From IMG/VR virus record IMGVR_UViG_2740892229_000015: a stretch of DNA of 21,538 bases. One strand, 5' to 3'. The notes beneath the pieces were generated by a model that saw only the letters and a program-made list of their open reading frames with translations, was not told where the DNA came from and made no database searches. How positions within the stretch are numbered: position 1 is the stretch's first letter; each line of letters begins with the position of its first letter. Origin of the DNA: a virus (taxonomy: Duplodnaviria > Heunggongvirae > Uroviricota > Caudoviricetes). A program made the position numbers and the translations under genes. This document shows positions 2,381 through 18,800 of this stretch, piece by piece.

Positions 2381-2667
2381 AAATAACCGTCCTTTCTCCA
2401 GATCTCTTGTGTGCGAAAAACACCTTCTGCATGCATCAGGCGCAATTCTTCTTTGGTGTAATCGCTGGTTTTTACTCTCCCGTCGATTAAATCGTGGCAT
2501 GAGTTACAGGCAATCGCTGCCTGCATATCGTGTGGCTTTATCGCTGTTCCGCACGTTCCCGCCAGCCTGTAATGCGCCAGCACAGAGGTTTCGGGATTGT
2601 GATTGCAGTAGCCAGGGATTCTGATCTGGCATATCTGGCCTTTAGCCGCTTTACGTAAATTCACCAT
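2377..2667 (-). CDS. YbcO-like (DUF1364) Cys-rich lambdoid nin-region protein, putative nuclease, 96 aa
   Basis: ORF track; cysteine pattern CQIRIPGYC...ACNSCHD recalled as YbcO-like; start overlaps the upstream stop (TAATG). Confidence 0.65.
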   Translation of the reverse strand: MVNLRKAAKGQICQIRIPGYCNHNPETSVLAHYRLAGTCGTAIKPHDMQAAIACNSCHDLIDGRVKTSDYTKEELRLMHAEGVFRTQEIWRKDGYL

Positions 2668-3266
2668 TACGCAAACTCCAGTAGTTGTGCGGCCACATTT
2701 TCAACTTCCTCCTGAGAGGAGAATTTACGGAACAGAATCCAGTTCCACAGCACATTCAGTACAGATTTATAAACCTGCTGAAACTCGACTTCGTCCATAT
2801 TCGCAAAAGCGATGGATTTTGCCCGACGCCCACGGCTACCGTCCGGATAAATATGCTCGGTGTAAAATCCGGCCTGAATGGTTACCCACTCGCGGAAAGC
2901 CTCAAACGACTTTAGCAACGCCGTATCCCGGGTTCTACGAGTCGCAACGGTGTTAAGGTATTGCTCTGCGGCATCACTCAGGGCTGGCGTGTGTTCCCGA
3001 CCAACTGATTCGCACAGGTAATCAACGAAACCAGACAGCAGTTCTCGTTCGCGAGGCGTGATCGCCCCACCGACCGGAGTCCAGTAATCGAATCCCAGTT
3101 GCAGGAGTTTGAAAAAACGCTTGTGGAATGCGTAGTTACGCACACGCTTAAAATCTGCGTGTATCCACTCACCTATTTTGATTTGATGCAGAAAATCGCA
3201 ACTCTCCGGCGTCGCCGGGAGAAGTAAACCAGAAGAAGTTTGTTTGACCAGTTGTATATGCGCCAT
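2667..3266 (-). CDS. Conserved lambdoid nin-region protein of unknown function (199 aa; possibly DUF1367-like)
   Basis: ORF track; tightly coupled to the YbcO-like gene; family assignment is from memory only. Confidence 0.5.
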   Translation of the reverse strand: MAHIQLVKQTSSGLLLPATPESCDFLHQIKIGEWIHADFKRVRNYAFHKRFFKLLQLGFDYWTPVGGAITPRERELLSGFVDYLCESVGREHTPALSDAAEQYLNTVATRRTRDTALLKSFEAFREWVTIQAGFYTEHIYPDGSRGRRAKSIAFANMDEVEFQQVYKSVLNVLWNWILFRKFSSQEEVENVAAQLLEFA

Positions 3267-3685
3267 TTCTCAATCTCTCGATGGCGCAGTGCAGCAGATG
3301 CCAGTTGTTCAAGCTAGCACGCAAATTGTAAACCAGAATGCCAGGAAAAAACAAAACCCGCCGAAGCTGGTTGTGTGCGGTTGCGTTGAAGTCTCCTAGC
3401 CAAAGAGTAGCGGTGACCACTCCCCGCCGATAATCTTAGTTGTTTAATTTCGTAAGCTAACTAGGCTAAAAGCTCTCTGTTGTCTGCCTGTTGTACAATT
3501 AACAAAATGAACAACGAACTAGATATACCAACGCCAGAATGGTGCAACAAATCCCAAACAACACAGCAATGCAACAATAACATATGTTATTTTCCTCTCA
3601 CGGGATTCAGTCCTGAATTCTCATAAAGCTAATCTTTTTTTAAAAACATACTGTTAGATCACATGCACTTTCTTTCTTAACATCG

Positions 3686-3713
3686 TTGACTTCGCATGCG
3701 AAGCGTTTAAAAT
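3686..3713 (+). promoter_or_regulatory. Candidate sigma70 promoter TTGACT-N16-TAAAAT with a perfect 14-bp palindrome cttcgcatgcgaag (3690-3703) in the spacer; about 50 bp upstream of the GHKL ATPase gene
   Basis: Hexamers and palindrome read directly. Confidence 0.4.
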
Positions 3714-3765
3714 CAACAATTTGCACTTAAGGTATTTATTTTCCCAAACACATAGAGAGTAAATT

Positions 3766-5157
3766 ATGACTGAGAACACGACTCCAACAGCAGACTTTAG
3801 TCCTAGTAAAAGATTTTTTGTAAGTATGCTAACTCGAGATATCGACTTAAACGATGCCATACTTGATCTGCTTGATAACTGCGTCGATGGGGCTTTACGT
3901 ACAATAAAAGACACAAAAAAAACTTCAAAACCATATGAAGGATTTTATGCGAAACTTACGATTAATAAAGATGTCTTTATTATAGAAGACAATTGCGGAG
4001 GTATCCCTAAAAGCTTCCGAGAATATGCTTTTAAAATGGGACGACCCCATCAAAAAGAAGAAGAAAATGAAGGCACCGTTGGCGTCTATGGTATTGGTAT
4101 GAAAAGAGCCATTTTTAAAATGGGTAGAGATTGCTCAATACAATCGAATAATCCCGATGGCGCATTCACTGTAGATATAACACCTGATTGGATCGATGGT
4201 GATGGTTGGAAAATACCGATGCACGAGAGTGACTATGATAACAAAAATCCAACAGGCACAACTATAGAGATAAAAAAACTCCATTCTAATGTGGCACAAA
4301 AATTTAATGAGAGCACATATCTTACTGATCTCTTTTTACAGATAAAACACTCATTGTCATTTATTATTCAAAAAGGATTTAAAATAGAATTAAATGGAGT
4401 TGTTGTTGAACATAATCCGATTAACATCATAACTGATCATTCTAAAATAGAACCATACATATATAAAGCTAAAATAGACGATGTTGATATCGATTTAGTT
4501 GTTGGCTTCTATAAAAATTTAGAAGATGACAATGATGATGTTTTAGAAAAAAGGAGTTCTGATGATGCTGGATGGACTGTCATTTGCAATGACCGCGTTG
4601 TTCTATATTGTGATAAGACACATCTCACAGGTTGGGGCTTTGCTAATGTACCAAGGTTTCATACCCAATTTATAGCAATTTCTGGGGTTGTTCGCTTTAC
4701 CAGTAAAAACCCAGAAAAATTACCAATAACAACAACGAAACGAGGTGTCGATCTTAGTTCTACATTGTACAATGATGTACGAAATAAAATGATTGAAGGG
4801 ATGATGCATTTTATTCGATTCACCAATCAGTGGAAAGGTGAGCATCTTGAAGAAGGGAAAAAATTACTTAAGTCAGCTCAGTCACATGAAGCTCAATCTT
4901 TATTTGAAATTACCCCACAATCAACTCCAGAAGATAAAAAAAATAACTGGTCCAACCCTAATAGAAACAAAAATGAGTGGCGATATACACCTAAGCTGCC
5001 TACCCCAGTAAAAAAAAGCTCTACTGTACGAATAATCTTCACCAGAGAGAAAGAAGATGTTAAAATTTTATCTAAATATTTCTTTGGACATGAAGATGCT
5101 AGCGCTTCTGATGTGGGGATGCAATGCTTTGATACGGTGATTGAAGAGGTGAAGTGA
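3766..5157 (+). CDS. GHKL-superfamily ATPase, MutL/MORC-like (463 aa)
   Basis: ORF track; Bergerat-fold motifs in order: N-box DLLDNCVDGA, G1 IEDNCGGI, G2 GVYGIGMKRA; GAGAG RBS; AT-rich codon usage unlike the flanking prophage genes. Confidence 0.85.
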   Translation: MTENTTPTADFSPSKRFFVSMLTRDIDLNDAILDLLDNCVDGALRTIKDTKKTSKPYEGFYAKLTINKDVFIIEDNCGGIPKSFREYAFKMGRPHQKEEENEGTVGVYGIGMKRAIFKMGRDCSIQSNNPDGAFTVDITPDWIDGDGWKIPMHESDYDNKNPTGTTIEIKKLHSNVAQKFNESTYLTDLFLQIKHSLSFIIQKGFKIELNGVVVEHNPINIITDHSKIEPYIYKAKIDDVDIDLVVGFYKNLEDDNDDVLEKRSSDDAGWTVICNDRVVLYCDKTHLTGWGFANVPRFHTQFIAISGVVRFTSKNPEKLPITTTKRGVDLSSTLYNDVRNKMIEGMMHFIRFTNQWKGEHLEEGKKLLKSAQSHEAQSLFEITPQSTPEDKKNNWSNPNRNKNEWRYTPKLPTPVKKSSTVRIIFTREKEDVKILSKYFFGHEDASASDVGMQCFDTVIEEVK

Positions 5158-6146
5158 TGTCTGGACAATACATTCCCTATCACTTAAGGCATAATAAGTC
5201 TATTGATAGAGAGATTTTTCTCGAAAGCCTAAACCTCTTAAGCAAAAGACTAAATATTCAAGAATATACATATATAGGTTTTGGTGGTCCGATGCTTGAA
5301 GATTTTAGAATCATGCATAATCGTATCGCTCTTTCTGATATGATTTCTCTCGAAGAACAAGAGTCTACTCACATCAGACAAAAATATAATTTGCCTTATA
5401 ATTGTATTGATTGTAAGCTAATATCAGCTCATGACTTTATTCTTGATTATAGTTTTTCTAAACCATCAATAACATGGTTAGACTATGCCTCCCCGAAAAA
5501 AATACAAACGGATCTAGATGATATACACTTACTAAGTACTAAAGTAAGCTCTTTTGATATTTTGAAGGTCACCTTCCCCATAAATCCTAGTTCTTATTAC
5601 CAACGTAGAGTTGGAGAAAGTTTAGATATTTTTAAAGAAGCTTTTATTAATTCATTAAAATCATTGCTTGGGAAAAAGTATCTTGATTTTAATCTTCAGA
5701 TATCAAATGCAGATCTTTCAGATCGTAAGATTAAAGCTCTTTTAATACGAATTATTACAAACGCTTTTAGATCAGCAATAGAACGTGGTCTTTCAGGACG
5801 TAAGGATAAGATTCAGTATTACCCATTATCCTTAAATCAATATAATGATGGCAGTCATACCATGTTGACAATATCAGGTTTTTTCTCCTCAGAACAAGAA
5901 TATATAGAGTTATCTAAGGCATGCGACCTTTCTAACTGGCAATTTTATTCAACAAATTGGGAAGACGTGCAAGAAATAGCAATACCAACACTAACAATTA
6001 AAGAAAAGATAAATTTAGATAGTAAACTGCCTGATAAAGAAGCATATCAGGCAGCCGCTGAAGAGTTCTCTTTAAACGAAAATGAACGGGATAACTATTA
6101 TAAATACTATAGGTTATACCCTAACTTCCAAAGAATTATGGTTTAA
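5157..6146 (+). CDS. Protein of unknown function (329 aa), translationally coupled to the GHKL ATPase; possible effector of the cassette
   Basis: ORF track 5154..6146; ATG at 5157 overlaps the ATPase TGA (TGATG); GAGGTG RBS; no motif I can recognise. Confidence 0.75.
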   Translation: MSGQYIPYHLRHNKSIDREIFLESLNLLSKRLNIQEYTYIGFGGPMLEDFRIMHNRIALSDMISLEEQESTHIRQKYNLPYNCIDCKLISAHDFILDYSFSKPSITWLDYASPKKIQTDLDDIHLLSTKVSSFDILKVTFPINPSSYYQRRVGESLDIFKEAFINSLKSLLGKKYLDFNLQISNADLSDRKIKALLIRIITNAFRSAIERGLSGRKDKIQYYPLSLNQYNDGSHTMLTISGFFSSEQEYIELSKACDLSNWQFYSTNWEDVQEIAIPTLTIKEKINLDSKLPDKEAYQAAAEEFSLNENERDNYYKYYRLYPNFQRIMV

Positions 6147-7265
6147 ATATTCGGGCTGTACTCTTTTATTTAATAAATTGTACAGCCCCTTTAATATATA
6201 TTCAGCAACTATTGGTGACACGCTATTTCCTATTTGTCTGAAACTATGCCATTTAGTTACATGAAAGCGAAACCAATCAGGGAAGCCTTGTAATCTAGCA
6301 GCTTCTCTTGGTGTAATCACTCTTGGATGATAAGGGTGGATCGGCCTGACGGCTTGAAAGCTTCCTTTATCTCTAGCGGTTCCCGCCCTTAAAGTCGGGC
6401 AAAAACCATTTGGATCTAATCTTGTAGATCTTGAAATTTTATCAGTTTCCCCAAAAGATAAGGAAGCATAACGCTCTTGGACGATTTTGCTATGTAATGT
6501 TCCGGTACATCCAGATATGATATTATTTTTTAACTTAGCGATCGATTCTGTATCACCAACATTCCGAGGGATCTGCCCCCATAATTTTTCATAAAATCCC
6601 CCTTTTCGATCTTTTTTAATTGTTCGCCAACTCTCAGAGTCTGATTGCCAATTGGCATCGATAATATCTGGTAATCCATACAAAGCATCTTTTACAGTAA
6701 CCGGATCAATCATTTTAGGCATAAATACTTCATCTGAAATATCAAGCTTCAATGATTTTTTTACACCGATAAAAAAATATCTAGTTCGAATAGTTGGAGC
6801 ACCATAATCAGATGCTTTTACCTTGATGGGATCAAGAATATCATAATCACCGCTAACCAAATTAAATGCTTTATTTCTAATGCCAGAATATTTCTCTTGC
6901 ATAATACCTGGAACATTTTCTGCCAAAAAGAATAATGGCTGTAATTCTGATACTAAACGGTAGAAATGCATGTAAAGCTGATTCCTGCTATCATCAGGAT
7001 TCCCCTTGCCTATTGAACTAAATCCTTGGCACGGAGGACCGCCAATAATACCATCTATGGGCATATCGTTTTTAAAAAAACCCTTAATTATTTCTGCATT
7101 TAGTAAAGAAACATCTTCTTGGACGTGCAAACTTCTTGGAAAATTAATTGCGTGAGTATTAATAGCATGTTGATCAATTTCAACTGCCATTTTAACATCA
7201 AATCCAGCACGTGCAGCACCAAGACTTAGACCTCCAACGCCAGAAAACAAATCTATTACATTCAT
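6114..7265 (-). CDS. DNA (cytosine-5)-methyltransferase (383 aa)
   Basis: ORF track; canonical C5-MTase motifs: I FSGVGG, IV GPPCQGFS (catalytic Cys), VI ENV, X QIGNSVSP; 3' end overlaps the convergent 329-aa gene by 33 bp. Confidence 0.9.
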   Translation of the reverse strand: MNVIDLFSGVGGLSLGAARAGFDVKMAVEIDQHAINTHAINFPRSLHVQEDVSLLNAEIIKGFFKNDMPIDGIIGGPPCQGFSSIGKGNPDDSRNQLYMHFYRLVSELQPLFFLAENVPGIMQEKYSGIRNKAFNLVSGDYDILDPIKVKASDYGAPTIRTRYFFIGVKKSLKLDISDEVFMPKMIDPVTVKDALYGLPDIIDANWQSDSESWRTIKKDRKGGFYEKLWGQIPRNVGDTESIAKLKNNIISGCTGTLHSKIVQERYASLSFGETDKISRSTRLDPNGFCPTLRAGTARDKGSFQAVRPIHPYHPRVITPREAARLQGFPDWFRFHVTKWHSFRQIGNSVSPIVAEYILKGLYNLLNKRVQPEYLNHNSLEVRV

Positions 7266-7297
7266 ATAGTTGCAACGTCTCTTATTAGTTTCTATGT

Positions 7298-7306
7298 ATT
7301 ATAACA
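7298..7306 (-). promoter_or_regulatory. Candidate extended -10 promoter (TGTTATAAT on the minus strand) about 30 nt upstream of the methyltransferase ATG
   Basis: Read from the reverse complement of 7298-7306. Confidence 0.35.
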
Positions 7307-7517
7307 CAACTGTTCTTGATGTTTTAACCCCATAAGATAACCTCATAAAGGCTATCCCTTGAAAATACCGGATCGCATAAATTTAATCTTTCAAAACTAC
7401 TTGTCTATTAATCGAGCAATTTAAGGTTGTTTTAGTCATGTCGATACCGACATAGTTAACTAAACCCATTTCATCGTCCAACAAATGGGGGTAATACACT
7501 TTGATTTATAGTCGGGT

Positions 7518-13971: not shown

Positions 13972-14854
13972 ACTGCTGGATAAGCTGCGTGAGCAGTACG
14001 GGGTCGGACCGGTATGCAGCGAACTGCATATTGCCCCGTCAACGTATTACCATTGTCAGCAACAGCGACATCATCCGGATAAACGCAGTGCCCGTGCGCA
14101 GCACGATGACTGGCTGAAGAAAGAGATACAGCGCGTATACGATGAAAATCACCAGGTATACGGTGTGCGTAAAGTCTGGCGTCAGTTGTTACGGGAAGGT
14201 ATCAGAGTGGCCAGATGCACTGTGGCACGTCTCATGGCAGTTATGGGACTTGCCGGTGTTCTCCGGGGTAAAAAGGTCCGCACTACCGTCAGCCGGAAAG
14301 CCGTTGCCGCATGCGACCGCGTAAACCGTCAGTTCGTGGCAGAACGTCCAGACCAGTTGTGGGTGGCTGATTTTACCTGGGTAAGCACATGGCAGGGCTT
14401 CGTTTATGTGGCGTTCATCATTGATGTGTTCGCCGGATACATCGTGGGATGGCAGGTCTCATCATCCATGGAAACAACATTCGTGCTGGATGCACTGGAG
14501 CAGGCGTTGTGGGCCCGTCGGCCGTCCGGCACAATCCATCACAGTGATAAAGGTTCTCAGTATGTATCGCTGGCCTACACGCAGCGGCTTAAGGAAGCCG
14601 GATTACTGGCATCAACAGGGAGTACTGGCGACTCGTATGACAACGCGATGGCTGAGAGCATCAATGGTCTTTACAAAGCGGAGGTAATACACCGTAAGAG
14701 CTGGAAAAACCGGACAGAAGTGGAACTGGCCACACTAACGTGGGTGGACTGGTATAACAATCGACGATTGCTGGAAAGGCTGGGCCATATTCCTCCGGCA
14801 GAAGCAGAAAAAGCTTATTATGCTTCCATCGGAAATAATGATCTGGCAGCCTGA
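13972..14854 (+). CDS. IS3-family transposase OrfB (DDE integrase core), 5' end lost in the N run
   Basis: ORF track 14165..14854 plus open frame back to the contig start. Confidence 0.85.
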
Positions 14855-15068: not shown

Positions 15069-15611
15069 TCAAATAAAACCAGCTGCCTTCCGGCGTTCGT
15101 ATTCCTGTTTCAGCCGCTCAATTGGCGTTGGCCCTTGCGGGTGTTTCGCCCCTTCCAGTTGTCGTCGCACTGGCGGAACACTCATCCCGTTACCAACATG
15201 CTTTGCCCATTTCGTCAGTTGCCGTTCCGCAAGTCGTTTTAACTCACCCTGCGTCATCTGGCGCTCAATCCCTCTGGTACGCATTTCGAGGCAGATGTGG
15301 TACAGCACAGGCTGTGGCCACGGGTATTTATCACTCCCGTCGTATCGCCAGGATTCATTGCGCCAGCGCCGGTACTCTTCCATCACTGCATCCACCGTAA
15401 GACCAAATGGATTTGCCCCACTCTCCGAAATCAGTGCAACAAACTCAGCCAGGTCCGGGGGCCACGTTTCACCCGCCCGGCAGCGGTCCATGCACTGACG
15501 GCAGACCAGCCGGATTTGCTGTTCAGTCATCGCGCCAATCTGGGCAATCCAGAGCTTCGAAGGTGCGGCCCCGTTCTTCTGTGTCCAGCGGTTCGAATAC
15601 ACCTCCCCCAT
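15069..15611 (-). CDS. Lambda P-like replication protein (helicase loader); start uncertain, longest ORF begins at 15731
   Basis: ORF track; collinear similarity to lambda P as I recall it (FLPSPGQFVAW vs TWPPDLAEFVAL, YPWKSNAHYW vs YPWPQPVLYH). Confidence 0.65.
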   Translation of the reverse strand: MGEVYSNRWTQKNGAAPSKLWIAQIGAMTEQQIRLVCRQCMDRCRAGETWPPDLAEFVALISESGANPFGLTVDAVMEEYRRWRNESWRYDGSDKYPWPQPVLYHICLEMRTRGIERQMTQGELKRLAERQLTKWAKHVGNGMSVPPVRRQLEGAKHPQGPTPIERLKQEYERRKAAGFI

Positions 15612-16172
15612 AAGCTCCCACAGCTTCCAGGCCGTTTCCGTTGCTGATAAATCCGTTGTCACGTTCCCACTGTTCGCGTGCTGCCCGGATTTCCTGAACT
15701 GCCCGTGATGCCGTGCCACCTGATGCTGCATGGCTTACCCCCTTGCTGACTGGTTTTACCTGTGCCCTGACGTGCTGCACGTGGCGGGCAAATTTCTGCT
15801 CCCACTGAACCTGCGTGAAAACCTTCCCCTCCGCCATCCAGTAATCCCGGAATGCGGCAAGCTCTGCAGGTGTAAATTCCGGCTCAGGCAGAGCCATACC
15901 CCACACTGCTGCCCGTTGTCGAAAATCCGACGACGGCTGCCAGACAGTAGTCATCGAAAATTTCCCGATCGGTTCGCTCAGGCCGTCCAGGTATTCAGGT
16001 TCGGCTGTCTGCAACGGCGCACCATGCGACTCACCGGTTGGAGCACTCTCGCGCATGCGCGCGTTATGTGTGGGGTTTAATTCTGTATCTGTATCTTTAT
16101 CTGTCGTGACTTGTCGTGACATGTGCGTGACATTTCGTGACGCGCCGTGACAATCGCCATTTTGTTCCCGCT
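15523..16172 (-). CDS. C-terminal part of an O-like replication initiator, truncated by the N run inside its iteron region
   Basis: ORF track 15523..16236 (the part beyond 16172 belongs to another piece); shares the iteron-encoded segment REQNGDCHGASRNVTHMSR with the O-like gene at 16277-17353. Confidence 0.6.
16081..16152. repeat. Origin-type iterons: tandem ~10-11-bp repeats containing CGTGAC, next to tatctgtatcttta repeats
   Basis: Read directly; same array as at 16885-16960. Confidence 0.6.
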
Positions 16173-18161: not shown

Positions 18162-18800
18162 ATGAGCAAGCAAACAATATCTGAACGCATAACCCAACGT
18201 ATGCATGCGCTAAACCTGAAAGGCAAAGACCTTGTCAATGCCACTGGCGCATCAAAAGGCTCCGTAAGTCAATGGATGAACGGTGGAGGAGCGCCGTCCT
18301 CGCGTTACATAAGTTCACTGGCAAAAATATTGAAAGTAAACGAAAATTGGCTTCTTAATGGAGGAGAGTTAAATACAGGTGATTCGCTTGATCTATCTTT
18401 ACCGCCGATAAAAACGGTTCCGCTACTATCACTTCAGCAGGCAGCAAGCTGGAGTGATTATATGAAAAATTCCTCAATAACCTCTTGTGTGCAGCTTGTC
18501 GGAGAAATCCCGGCCAATACCTTTGCAGTTGTTCTAGAGAGTGACAGTATGTCAACATCTGGTGGGGGAGTTTCCATCCCAAATGGTTCAACAGTTTTTG
18601 TTGATCCCAATCGAACCGTACAACCAGGAAATATTGTCCTTGCCTTACCCAAAGGGACCACAACACCTGTCATTCGTAAACTGGAGATAGAAGGGCCGGA
18701 TATTCTTTTAGTCCCCACGAATCCTCGCTACCCTTCAATTATGCTGGATGATCTATCTTGCATATTGGGCGTATGCTTTAAAATTCAACAAGATATTTAA
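18162..18800 (+). CDS. CI-like prophage repressor: N-terminal HTH plus C-terminal S24 (LexA-like) autopeptidase domain (212 aa)
   Basis: ORF track; HTH GASKGSVSQWMNG; C-terminal ESDSMS...VDPN...PGNIV...RKL collinear with the lambda CI C-terminal domain. Confidence 0.8.
   Translation: MSKQTISERITQRMHALNLKGKDLVNATGASKGSVSQWMNGGGAPSSRYISSLAKILKVNENWLLNGGELNTGDSLDLSLPPIKTVPLLSLQQAASWSDYMKNSSITSCVQLVGEIPANTFAVVLESDSMSTSGGGVSIPNGSTVFVDPNRTVQPGNIVLALPKGTTTPVIRKLEIEGPDILLVPTNPRYPSIMLDDLSCILGVCFKIQQDI

Follow-up and report, generated by a model that had tools for sequence, protein, structure and literature searches.

A PF20553 protein with a predicted class-I methyltransferase fold is paired with a MORC-family ATPase in mobile, usually Dcm-linked cassettes

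What does a small protein contribute when its gene is wedged between those of a GHKL ATPase and a DNA cytosine methyltransferase on a phage? This question arises for the product of positions 5157–6146 in the window studied here, a stretch of viral DNA of 21,538 nt. A first-pass annotation, made from the sequence by eye, had taken this protein for an unrecognised and possibly new fold, and for the likely effector of a restriction-modification (RM)-like cassette in which it would cleave DNA or recognise the target.

The partner gene and its MORC-family ATPase

The gene runs on the plus strand from an ATG at 5157–5159 to a TAA at 6144–6146 (990 nt) and encodes a protein of 329 aa, referred to here as the partner. 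Upstream, the GHKL ORF (3766–5157, plus strand) stops with TGA at 5155–5157, and a single base is common to this stop and the partner start (TGATG). A Shine–Dalgarno element read from the sequence, AAGAGG at 5144–5149 on the plus strand, lies 7 nt upstream of the ATG, still inside the 3' end of the ATPase gene. The ORF listing also offers GTG at 5154 as a start one codon further upstream; RefSeq entry WP_000016656.1 uses the ATG. At the other end, ORF coordinates show a convergent overlap of 33 nt (6114–6146) between the 3' ends of the partner gene and dcm. Comparable convergent overlaps occur elsewhere, for example in loci L011, L025, L030 and L051–L062. Position, start overlap, ribosome-binding site and 3' overlap are thus all as first annotated. 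The ORF is a genuine gene rather than a chance reading frame, because the frame stays open for 329 codons in DNA of 31% G+C, homologues (25–90% identity) are found in many phyla, and particular positions are conserved. In an alignment of 223 sequences with a median identity of 32% to the window protein, ∼18 positions reach 94% conservation or more. A profile search retrieved 2124 clusters (50% identity) at E ≤ 0.001.

The upstream ORF encodes a prokaryotic MORC-family GHKL+S5 ATPase of 463 aa. Taking the features that define MORC proteins from Iyer, Abhiman & Aravind 2008 (PMC2292703), we found GHKL motifs I–IV, a C-terminal S5-fold domain with a basic finger, and the GhXhhpXXRhl signature. 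No PADLOC family matched this ATPase at E ≤ 1, and the only NCBIfam trace was a sub-threshold match to MzaB (E 0.037, 12 bits where the cut-off is 850).

To describe the pairing, we surveyed 80 species loci from many phyla. MORC lies immediately upstream of the partner in 78 of them; of the two exceptions, one lies at a contig end and the other has a split gene. The two genes share a 4-nt overlap of the ATGA type in 58/79 loci and a 1-nt overlap in three. Identity matrices of the two proteins are correlated (r = 0.79, Mantel p = 0.001). Hence MORC and the partner co-evolve, and the partner is almost always MORC-paired and translationally coupled, which bears out the proposed partnership with the ATPase.

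Family, predicted fold and motifs of the partner

The partner proved to belong to a catalogued family. It matches PF20553 (Methyltransf_35) over its full length, residues 1–328 aligning with positions 1–308 of the 309-position profile at 300.4 bits (E 2e-89; gathering score 27 bits). PF20553 is present in all 57 of the 57 homologue clusters, each homologue being a single domain of ∼320–350 aa. RefSeq names WP_000016656.1 an O-methyltransferase, and the Pfam label is 'putative O-methyltransferase'. The window protein also matches phrog_19983 (E 1.7e-154), which PHROGs places in the category of unknown function. There was no match in NCBIfam, nor in PADLOC at E ≤ 1, and a literature search found no paper mentioning PF20553, Methyltransf_35 or the accession.

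A high-confidence structure model of the partner predicts the Rossmann fold of class-I SAM methyltransferases, with an alternating β/α core of seven strands of which the last two form a hairpin. The nearest solved structures are the RNA/DNA-base methyltransferases RsmD, Trm1, RlmI, RlmO and RlmJ. Alignment and model together place the cofactor motifs of the class: motif I, G41-F-G43-G44-P45, follows β1 (G43 94% and G44 88% conserved); motif II is E66 at the end of β2 (96%); and motif IV is D109 at the end of β4 (100%), followed by Y110 (86%). The partner is predicted to bind SAM. In addition, R11, K14, R18, R74 and Q75 form a near-invariant ring of basic and polar residues, which is compatible with binding of phosphate or nucleic acid. 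In short, the partner is a conserved PF20553 protein, and its modelled fold is the class-I SAM-methyltransferase fold rather than a new one.

The link to methyltransferases is drawn from fold and motifs only: hhalign of the family profile against the E. coli sequences of RsmD and of RlmJ, each taken singly as opposed to as a family profile, gave probabilities below 1%. A PDB profile search with the family alignment returned noise only (best E 0.038, HMG-CoA synthase). Neither Pfam nor PADLOC gave a match at E ≤ 1 to the models of canonical DNA methyltransferases (N6_N4_Mtase, MethyltransfD12, DNA_methylase and PADLOC MTase). The motif after β4 reads D-Y-A-x-P, which is neither the canonical (D/N/S)PP(Y/F/W) of amino-methyltransferases nor the PCQ...ENV pattern of C5 enzymes.

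Several kinds of active site were considered and rejected. Those of O-methyltransferases were assessed by reading motifs in the alignment against the secondary structure of the model, rather than by structural superposition. For a metal triad of the COMT/CCoAOMT type, no D/N pair is kept after β5 (PINP, NANP, NAHS, PLIP and others). For an RrmJ-type K-D-K-E tetrad of 2'-O enzymes, K14 and D109 could fill the first two positions, but K137 lies within β5 and not after it, and no Glu is invariant at the start of β6. C83, the only conserved cysteine, precedes β3, at the wrong strand end for an active-site cysteine of the m5C/m5U type. Since motif IV fits neither an amino-methyltransferase, the COMT triad nor the K-D-K-E tetrad, the acceptor is not readable from sequence.

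We also looked for signs of cleavage. The partner has no match to nuclease families (PD-(D/E)xK, HNH, GIY-YIG, PLD, Vsr-like) in Pfam, NCBIfam or PADLOC, and the model has no nuclease fold. By-eye reading had seen no nuclease, HNH, PD-(D/E)xK or NTPase motif, and the same three databases agree. Nothing points to cleavage by the partner, so the DNA-cutting function suggested for it finds no footing.

A mobile cassette with Dcm

The convergent gene (6114–7265, minus strand) encodes a Dcm-type C5 DNA cytosine methyltransferase of 383 aa (Pfam DNA_methylase, E 2.6e-61; PADLOC MTase_II, E 2e-98), near-identical to PDB 3g7u (E 3e-254). The suggested tie between cassette and cytosine methyltransferase extends well beyond the window: Dcm lies within 6 kb of the partner in 67/80 loci and is adjacent in 57. 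Gene orders resemble those of RM systems: the genes either converge and overlap at their ends or form a co-directional operon. One lineage takes in 40 of 69 Dcms, and within it the variable (target-recognition) region averages 47% identity. Co-evolution of Dcm with MORC and the partner is weak (r 0.31–0.38). Dcm is absent from the 6 kb around the partner in 13 of the 80 loci, six of them cyanobacterial (L012, L014–L018); in the two cyanobacterial Dcm-less loci whose flanks were scanned, the MORC/partner pair sits among ndh genes. Vsr is found in 27 of the 80 loci, always alongside Dcm. MORC and the partner form a mobile two-gene module, usually accompanied by Dcm and in about one-third of loci also by Vsr.

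Mobility is evident from the settings in which the cassette occurs. The window is a lambdoid prophage of the lambda-P/CI type with the cassette in its nin region; its identification with the Rac-like prophage of strain RM9322 (L001) fails outside the cassette. A Yersinia lambdoid prophage likewise carries the cassette in the nin region. In a P2-like prophage it lies between portal Q and gpA, the slot that holds old/tin in P2, and in the Pf inovirus PfAC20 it occupies the accessory end. Genomic islands that carry the cassette are flanked by integrases and by type I/III Res, McrA-like and GajB-like genes. The G+C content of the cassette is 31–37%, versus ∼50% in the flanks. Among 5426 complete E. 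coli genomes, 173 have the cassette, Shiga-toxin-producing lineages among them.

The core proteins of the window cassette contain no recognisable nuclease, and the 80 loci have no nuclease in common. A nuclease concealed in the C-terminal region of MORC was considered and gave no fold match. Vsr does not qualify as the cassette nuclease, given its presence in barely a third of loci and its absence from the window. HNH-type neighbours occur in a minority of loci. A constant fourth gene was sought among flanking-ORF clusters, most of which are antisense shadows of core genes; the largest clusters that do not look like shadows (an HNH-like and an integrase-like ORF) reach six loci. The 107 nearest neighbours span 155 Pfam families, of which integrase is the commonest with five. 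A type II RM system comprises a methyltransferase and its cognate endonuclease; here the methyltransferase is present and no endonuclease was found. Nor does the cassette match any defence-system model of PADLOC-DB 2.0.0, where Dcm alone matches generic MTase models. A 2025 study that applied PADLOC to Pf phage PfAC20 scored the cassette as 'cytosine methyltransferase only, incomplete RM'. Literature searches (GHKL + O-methyltransferase, GHKL + Vsr + Dcm, MORC + cytosine methyltransferase + phage) found no paper on the cassette.

Possible roles of the pair

Our preferred reading, to which we give an even chance, is that the partner uses SAM, acts on nucleic acid and belongs as a subunit to an RM-like MORC system. 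Dcm would mark host and element DNA, and the MORC dimer would act as an ATP-driven DNA clamp. The partner would bind SAM and engage nucleic acid as the substrate-recognising, methyl-transferring subunit of a 'non-self' arm, standing in for the nuclease or helicase of other MORC/paraMORC systems. On this reading MORC and the partner would form a complex, the cassette would have a defence phenotype, and Dcm methylation would protect against the pair. RM-like gene orders, the mobile, defence-type context and the linkage to Dcm and Vsr argue for an RM-like system. Against it, the cassette conserves neither a nuclease nor any other component that would obviously do harm, which leaves a classical restriction mechanism unsupported. 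The Dcm-less loci, the weak co-evolution of Dcm and the lack of a PADLOC defence model also count against it. It would be odd for a toxic restriction module to stand among ndh genes with no Dcm nearby, unless a methyltransferase encoded elsewhere gives protection. As no core cassette protein has a recognisable nuclease, the partner may act as effector or sensor, in a role of methyltransferase rather than nuclease type. Homology to a non-defence family had been named as a result that would speak against such a role; it was not found, because PF20553 is essentially the MORC partner family.

Could such a system confer immunity without a nuclease? We think this unlikely, yet it can be put concretely. 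Dcm would mark self, the MORC clamp would load the PF20553 methyltransferase onto unmarked DNA, and methylation, or MORC compaction licensed by it, would block replication or expression of the invader. If true, prokaryotes would possess an equivalent of eukaryotic silencing by MORC plus DNA methylation, with a methyltransferase replacing the nuclease as immune effector.

It is doubtful, if arguable, that the cassette only modifies. The partner would then be a second nucleic-acid methyltransferase, of DNA bases or RNA, loaded or made processive by MORC and serving the mobile element in, for example, restriction evasion or epigenetic regulation, with no restriction arm. The nuclease-free core would suit this role, as would SAM-site residues kept as in active enzymes, the closeness of the model to rRNA/tRNA base methyltransferases, and the existence of apparently viable pairs without linked Dcm. 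Orphan methyltransferases are, moreover, frequent in phage nin regions. They are also cited there in PMC11878078. However, pure modification leaves unexplained the near-obligate ATPase, the RM-like convergent overlap with dcm and the placement in slots usual for defence genes, and the partner matches no DNA-methyltransferase model of Pfam or PADLOC. It is quite unlikely that the partner is an O-methyltransferase in the literal sense, acting on a protein or small molecule in a regulatory way, for example CheR-like on MORC or Dcm carboxylates, or on a nucleotide or metabolite. The name is a label only: no D/D/N metal site of the COMT type is conserved and the positions after β5 vary, the top structural matches are nucleic-acid enzymes, and both the invariant basic residues and the DNA-centred surroundings of the gene speak for nucleic acid.

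Two further readings turn on Vsr and on the missing nuclease. MORC might play a MutL-like role for Vsr and, with the partner, aid strand discrimination or very-short-patch repair, and so counter the mutations to which the cassette's own 5-methylcytosine gives rise. The restriction of Vsr to loci with Dcm (27/80) is in keeping with this, and MutL, a GHKL+S5 ATPase, stimulates Vsr (PMC2292703); we nonetheless judge a repair role improbable. Finally, a cassette of three core proteins without a recognisable nuclease needs some means to act on DNA, and the first-pass annotation looked for it in a DNA-cleaving or target-recognising partner of novel fold. This is now very improbable: the high-confidence model has the standard class-I methyltransferase fold, no nuclease family or fold matches, and the conserved acidic residues E66 and D109 are at SAM-site positions.

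As the protein is already catalogued, the claim of a new fold falls, and the remaining interest lies in a mobile, phylum-spanning cassette of MORC, methyltransferase-fold partner and Dcm. The cassette occupies prophage slots in which defence genes are usually found, has no recognisable nuclease and is missed by defence-finding tools. Its presence in E. coli genomes makes it directly testable in that organism. If the pair acts on unmethylated DNA, this would reveal a function for bacterial MORC and could provide a mechanistic link to MORC/DNA-methylation silencing in eukaryotes. If the partner is only a second modification enzyme, a substrate would be defined for a methyltransferase family that comprises ∼2100 clusters (50% identity) and has yet to be characterised.

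Related systems and candidate control elements

Sequence identity of the partner to RsmD/Rv2966c (m2G966), Trm1 (m2,2G26), RlmI/RlmO (m5C) and RlmJ (m6A) is just 8–14%, and no sequence-level relationship to RNA-base methyltransferases was detected by Pfam, the PDB profile search or hhalign. Their motif IV is DPP(F/Y) or DPFG, in contrast to D-Y-A-x-P. The partner has, in addition, an N-terminal Y-H-L-R...K...R helix, a helical insertion of ∼70 aa between β5 and β6, and a C-terminal domain of ∼85 aa. RNA-base methyltransferases are housekeeping enzymes without MORC pairing, whereas the PF20553 partner is MORC-paired.

MORC and paraMORC GHKL+S5 ATPases were described in laterally mobile RM operons that also encode cytosine methylases and Vsr (PMC2292703). 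In that work, an SFII helicase is present in ∼70% of the MORC operons described, nucleases (RE-fold, HNH, HKD) recur as a further component in several operon types, and a minority of MORC neighbourhoods have methylases without the helicase. The cassettes studied here have in common with those operons a GHKL+S5 ATPase with MORC signature, cytosine methylases, Vsr and mobile loci. They differ in that the constant partner is a protein of predicted methyltransferase fold and neither helicase nor nuclease is conserved. We found no description of a PF20553-type partner in the text of PMC2292703.

Similarly, the HATPase_c_3/HEF_HK + Response_reg_2 duplets of Bellieny-Rabelo et al. 2021 (PMC8011034) combine a C5 methylase, a GHKL-type protein and a dedicated partner. 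In the C5-methylase-linked duplets that partner is small, and Vsr and sometimes HNH_2 are nearby; a few PF20553 loci examined here likewise have an HNH_2 neighbour. Yet the GHKL protein of the duplets has extra HEF_HK and second HATPase_c domains, an architecture unlike that of MORC here, and its partner has a receiver-like fold as against the predicted methyltransferase fold. BREX (PglX), DISARM (DrmMI/MII), MADS and Mza resemble the cassette in general logic, in that DNA methylation is joined to an ATPase and a simple type II endonuclease is lacking, but differ from it in their components and component number.

Three candidate control elements were noted around the cassette genes. A consensus scan gave a possible sigma-70 promoter upstream of the MORC/partner operon (TTGACT-16-TAAAAT, 3686–3713, plus strand, 10/12 matches). 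This candidate is weak, as the scan of the region gave 19 sites against a shuffle expectation of 16.2, which is not above chance. An inverted repeat at 6153–6188 (14-nt arms, 86% complementary, 8-nt loop) lies 3' of the partner stop, inside the last dcm codons. The terminator scan did not list it; from its sequence, it is possibly a bidirectional terminator or a regulatory hairpin. Upstream of dcm, a consensus match suggests an extended –10 promoter on the minus strand (TTAAAA-18-TGnTATAAT, 7298–7327).

The partner gene and its product

The partner gene, placed at 5157–6146 by the first-pass annotation, was confirmed there: a plus-strand frame of 990 nt (329 aa), read from the sequence, opens with ATG at 5157 and closes with TAA at 6144–6146. 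Upstream on the same strand lies the ORF of a GHKL ATPase (3766–5157, 463 aa), whose TGA (5155–5157) shares one base with the partner start (TGATG), and AAGAGG is found 7 nt 5′ of the ATG. The minus-strand ORF of Dcm, a C5 DNA cytosine methyltransferase (6114–7265, 383 aa), overlaps the partner 3′ end by 33 nt. Hence the proposed coupling to the ATPase, with the partner's own ribosome-binding site, and the overlap with the methyltransferase gene both held. Directly 3′ of the partner stop, in the final dcm codons, is an inverted repeat (6153–6188; 14-nt arms, 8-nt loop), which might act on the overlapping convergent transcripts as a terminator in both directions or as a regulatory hairpin.

This ORF is a real gene. 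Its frame is long and open, the DNA is 31% G+C, and homologues occur in many phyla, with identity down to ∼25%. A profile search against 1.84 billion representatives gave 2124 clusters at E ≤ 0.001, of which the top 150 were all single-domain proteins of ∼320–350 aa or shorter fragments. Where other E. coli strains share this DNA at 100% identity, RefSeq names the trio 'ATP-binding protein', 'O-methyltransferase' (WP_000016656.1) and 'DNA cytosine methyltransferase'.

The product had been described as unrecognised, perhaps a new fold with nuclease or target-recognition function. Yet it matched Pfam PF20553 (Methyltransf_35, 'putative O-methyltransferase') along its whole length (E 2e-89); NCBIfam and PADLOC gave no match, and PHROGs lists the family as of unknown function. 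An AlphaFold2 model built with a 33-sequence alignment was confident (pLDDT 89.8, pTM 0.88) and predicts the strand/helix alternation of a class-I SAM-dependent methyltransferase, with a β6–β7 hairpin at the end. The new fold thus fell away, and the nuclease idea found no support in the predicted fold or among the nuclease families of Pfam, NCBIfam and PADLOC. By conservation across 223 sequences (median identity 32%), the SAM site is apparently intact: the G41-F-G43-G44-P45 loop after β1 is kept, as are E66 at the end of β2 (96%) and D109 at the end of β4 (100%; next residue Y110, 86%). Also near-invariant are Y8, R11, K14 and R18 in the N-terminal helix, and D49, R74, Q75, W107, T139, Y229, D231, P277 and E283. 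The D-Y-A-x-P after β4 differs from the canonical amino-methyltransferase DPP(Y/F). Conserved positions fit neither a COMT-type metal site nor an RrmJ-type K-D-K-E tetrad, so the 'O-' of the family name is putative. Judged from sequence, the partner is a PF20553 member outside the canonical DNA methyltransferase, nuclease and PADLOC families; we regard these identity statements, taken jointly, as nearly certain. What the annotation took for a possible new-fold effector is rather a pointer to an uncharacterised MORC–methyltransferase–Dcm cassette.

Conservation and genomic settings of the cassette

The upstream ATPase has the GHKL motifs DLLDN38, D75NCGG and G106xYGIGMKR and a strongly conserved second half (AGWTxxCNDR, TGWG, H299xQ, TTTK325RG). 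Its identity across phyla is ∼45%, and its conservation exceeds that of the partner. The S5-domain signature GhXhhpXXRhl is the defining mark of MORC proteins (Iyer et al., PMC2292703); here it reads G269-W-T-V-I-C-N-D-R277-V-V. By its motifs, the ATPase is a MORC.

The comparison covered 80 loci, each from a different species, of Cyanobacteria, Alpha-, Beta-, Gamma- and Deltaproteobacteria, Firmicutes, Acidobacteria, Verrucomicrobia, Chloroflexi, Latescibacteria, Poribacteria and further groups; their ORFs were searched with iterated HMMs seeded with the window proteins and Ralstonia Vsr. MORC lay directly upstream of the partner in 78/80 loci, the two exceptions being a contig end and a split gene. 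Among 79 loci, a partner start codon makes a 4-nt ATGA overlap with the MORC stop in 58, three have the 1-nt overlap of the window, and the rest, one excepted, have a gap of ≤12 nt. Pairwise identity matrices of MORC and partner were correlated (r = 0.79, Mantel p = 0.001), and those of Dcm with either protein less so (r 0.31–0.38, p = 0.001 each). MORC is therefore an obligate, co-evolving, translationally coupled mate of the PF20553 protein.

Dcm-type methyltransferases were present within 6 kb of the partner in 67/80 loci and adjacent in 57 (upstream on the same strand in 29, downstream and convergent in 22, downstream on the same strand in six). A single lineage (≥50% identity) holds 40 of 69 Dcms. 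Its variable, presumably target-recognising, region is nearly as conserved as the N-terminal catalytic core (mean identity 47% versus 51%), which suggests a common target specificity. At 10/80 loci (L023:7061–8824(−), L024:7602–9347(−) and eight more), a second MORC-like GHKL protein of ∼585 aa is encoded in an operon with Dcm, adjoining the MORC/partner pair; it also has the G..CNDR signature, and its C-terminal ∼180 aa gave no Pfam match.

Flanking ORFs of the 80 loci revealed no constant additional gene, their clusters being mostly antisense shadows of core genes, and no conserved nuclease was found across loci. The 107 nearest neighbours fell into 155 Pfam families, most commonly phage integrase (5), HNH_2 (4) and ResIII (3). 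Beside the cassette in six loci is an ORF family of ∼250–360 aa (L061:7720–8808(−); homologues in L020, L024, L036, L074 and L089) that lacks a Pfam match and, with paired CxxC and a DH dipeptide, looks HNH-like by eye. It may be an optional nuclease add-on. The four HNH_2 neighbours are additional to these six loci.

Divergent triads occupied the window's own slot in Yersinia lambdoid prophages and, in a Cronobacter P2-like prophage, the interval between portal Q and gpA, the old/tin slot of P2. Others were found in Pseudomonas islands with a flanking integrase, in Ralstonia (adjoining gyrB, near a McrA-like gene), on two plasmids, and at the accessory end of the Pseudomonas inovirus PfAC20. 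In this filamentous Pf prophage (PP058144.1, 280–3711) the triad is ORF1–3; ORF9 is a second, short DNA cytosine methyltransferase. The PfAC20 paper, using PADLOC, reported only a cytosine methyltransferase, as an incomplete RM system (PMC11878078). Dcm was absent within 6 kb in six cyanobacterial loci (L012, L014–L018: two Nostoc, Scytonema, Kastovskya, a Microcystaceae MAG and an unclassified MAG). The pair sits amid ndh genes (NADH dehydrogenase antiporter-like subunit) in L012 and L017, the two Pfam-scanned, and homologous antiporter-like proteins join L012, L014, L017 and L018; here the pair seems to be inherited stably in a form unlinked to Dcm. Overall, MORC/partner is strongly linked to 5-methylcytosine enzymes and carried by mobile elements.

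Possible mechanism and alternatives

Prokaryotic MORCs and paraMORCs have been predicted to be RM components beside cytosine methylases and Vsr, with a helicase-less minority of neighbourhoods (Iyer, Abhiman and Aravind 2008, PMC2292703). The text of that paper does not describe the methyltransferase-fold partner, which here takes the place of the nuclease or helicase of known MORC/paraMORC systems. In the parallel duplets of Bellieny-Rabelo et al. (2021, PMC8011034), the GHKL-type protein and a different, small receiver-like partner come after a C5 methylase. By analogy with eukaryotic MORCs and other GHKL+S5 engines, MORC would be an ATP-driven clamp, forming a complex on DNA with the partner; the latter would engage and methylate a nucleic-acid target using SAM, and Dcm methylation would tell self from non-self. 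We propose this RM-like mechanism tentatively, at somewhat below even chances; protein identities plus RM-like mechanism, our best explanation overall, we put at about even.

The main rival reading dispenses with a restriction arm and sees a module for modification only. The absence of a nuclease and the apparent viability of Dcm-less pairs accord with it; against it speak a gene layout like that of RM systems, insertion at defence-type sites and an ATPase that is obligate, and we consider it unlikely. More doubtful still is an immune or silencing system built on MORC and gated by methylation, with no nuclease and with the methyltransferase as effector, which would be highly interesting if true. 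Lesser alternatives are a repair-accessory role with Vsr, which occurred in 27/80 loci, every time with Dcm, and a literal O-methyltransferase acting on a protein or small-molecule substrate. The nuclease or new-fold effector has very little support. As an uncharacterised, widespread and testable system, the cassette is of moderate value.

The window prophage

The window is a lambdoid prophage, with a Q-type antiterminator (1826–2500, −), DUF1367 (2667–3266, −), a lambda-P-like replication gene (15069–15731, −) and a CI-like S24 repressor (18162–18800, +). The cassette (3600–7400) forms a sharp low-G+C island in the nin region (31–37% versus ∼50% in the flanks). Its MORC/partner operon opposes the neighbouring phage early/late genes, with which dcm is co-directional. 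The 4 kb of the cassette were found in 173 of 5426 complete E. coli genomes, all chromosomal and at ≥99% identity. Dcm is essentially identical to PDB 3g7u ('cytosine-specific methyltransferase'; E 3e-254, residues 1–366), so a crystal structure exists; no stated recognition sequence was found. An IS-type transposase fragment (14165–14854, +; rve integrase core, HTH_21) lies between the immunity and replication regions. Near the antiterminator gene and on its strand are three phage-borne tRNA genes: Arg-TCT (1224–1300, −), Arg-TCG (1525–1601, −) and one with a CAT anticodon (1611–1686, −), whose equivalent in a related strain carries the annotation tRNA-Ile. The related strain RM9322 has only two tRNAs at the corresponding place.
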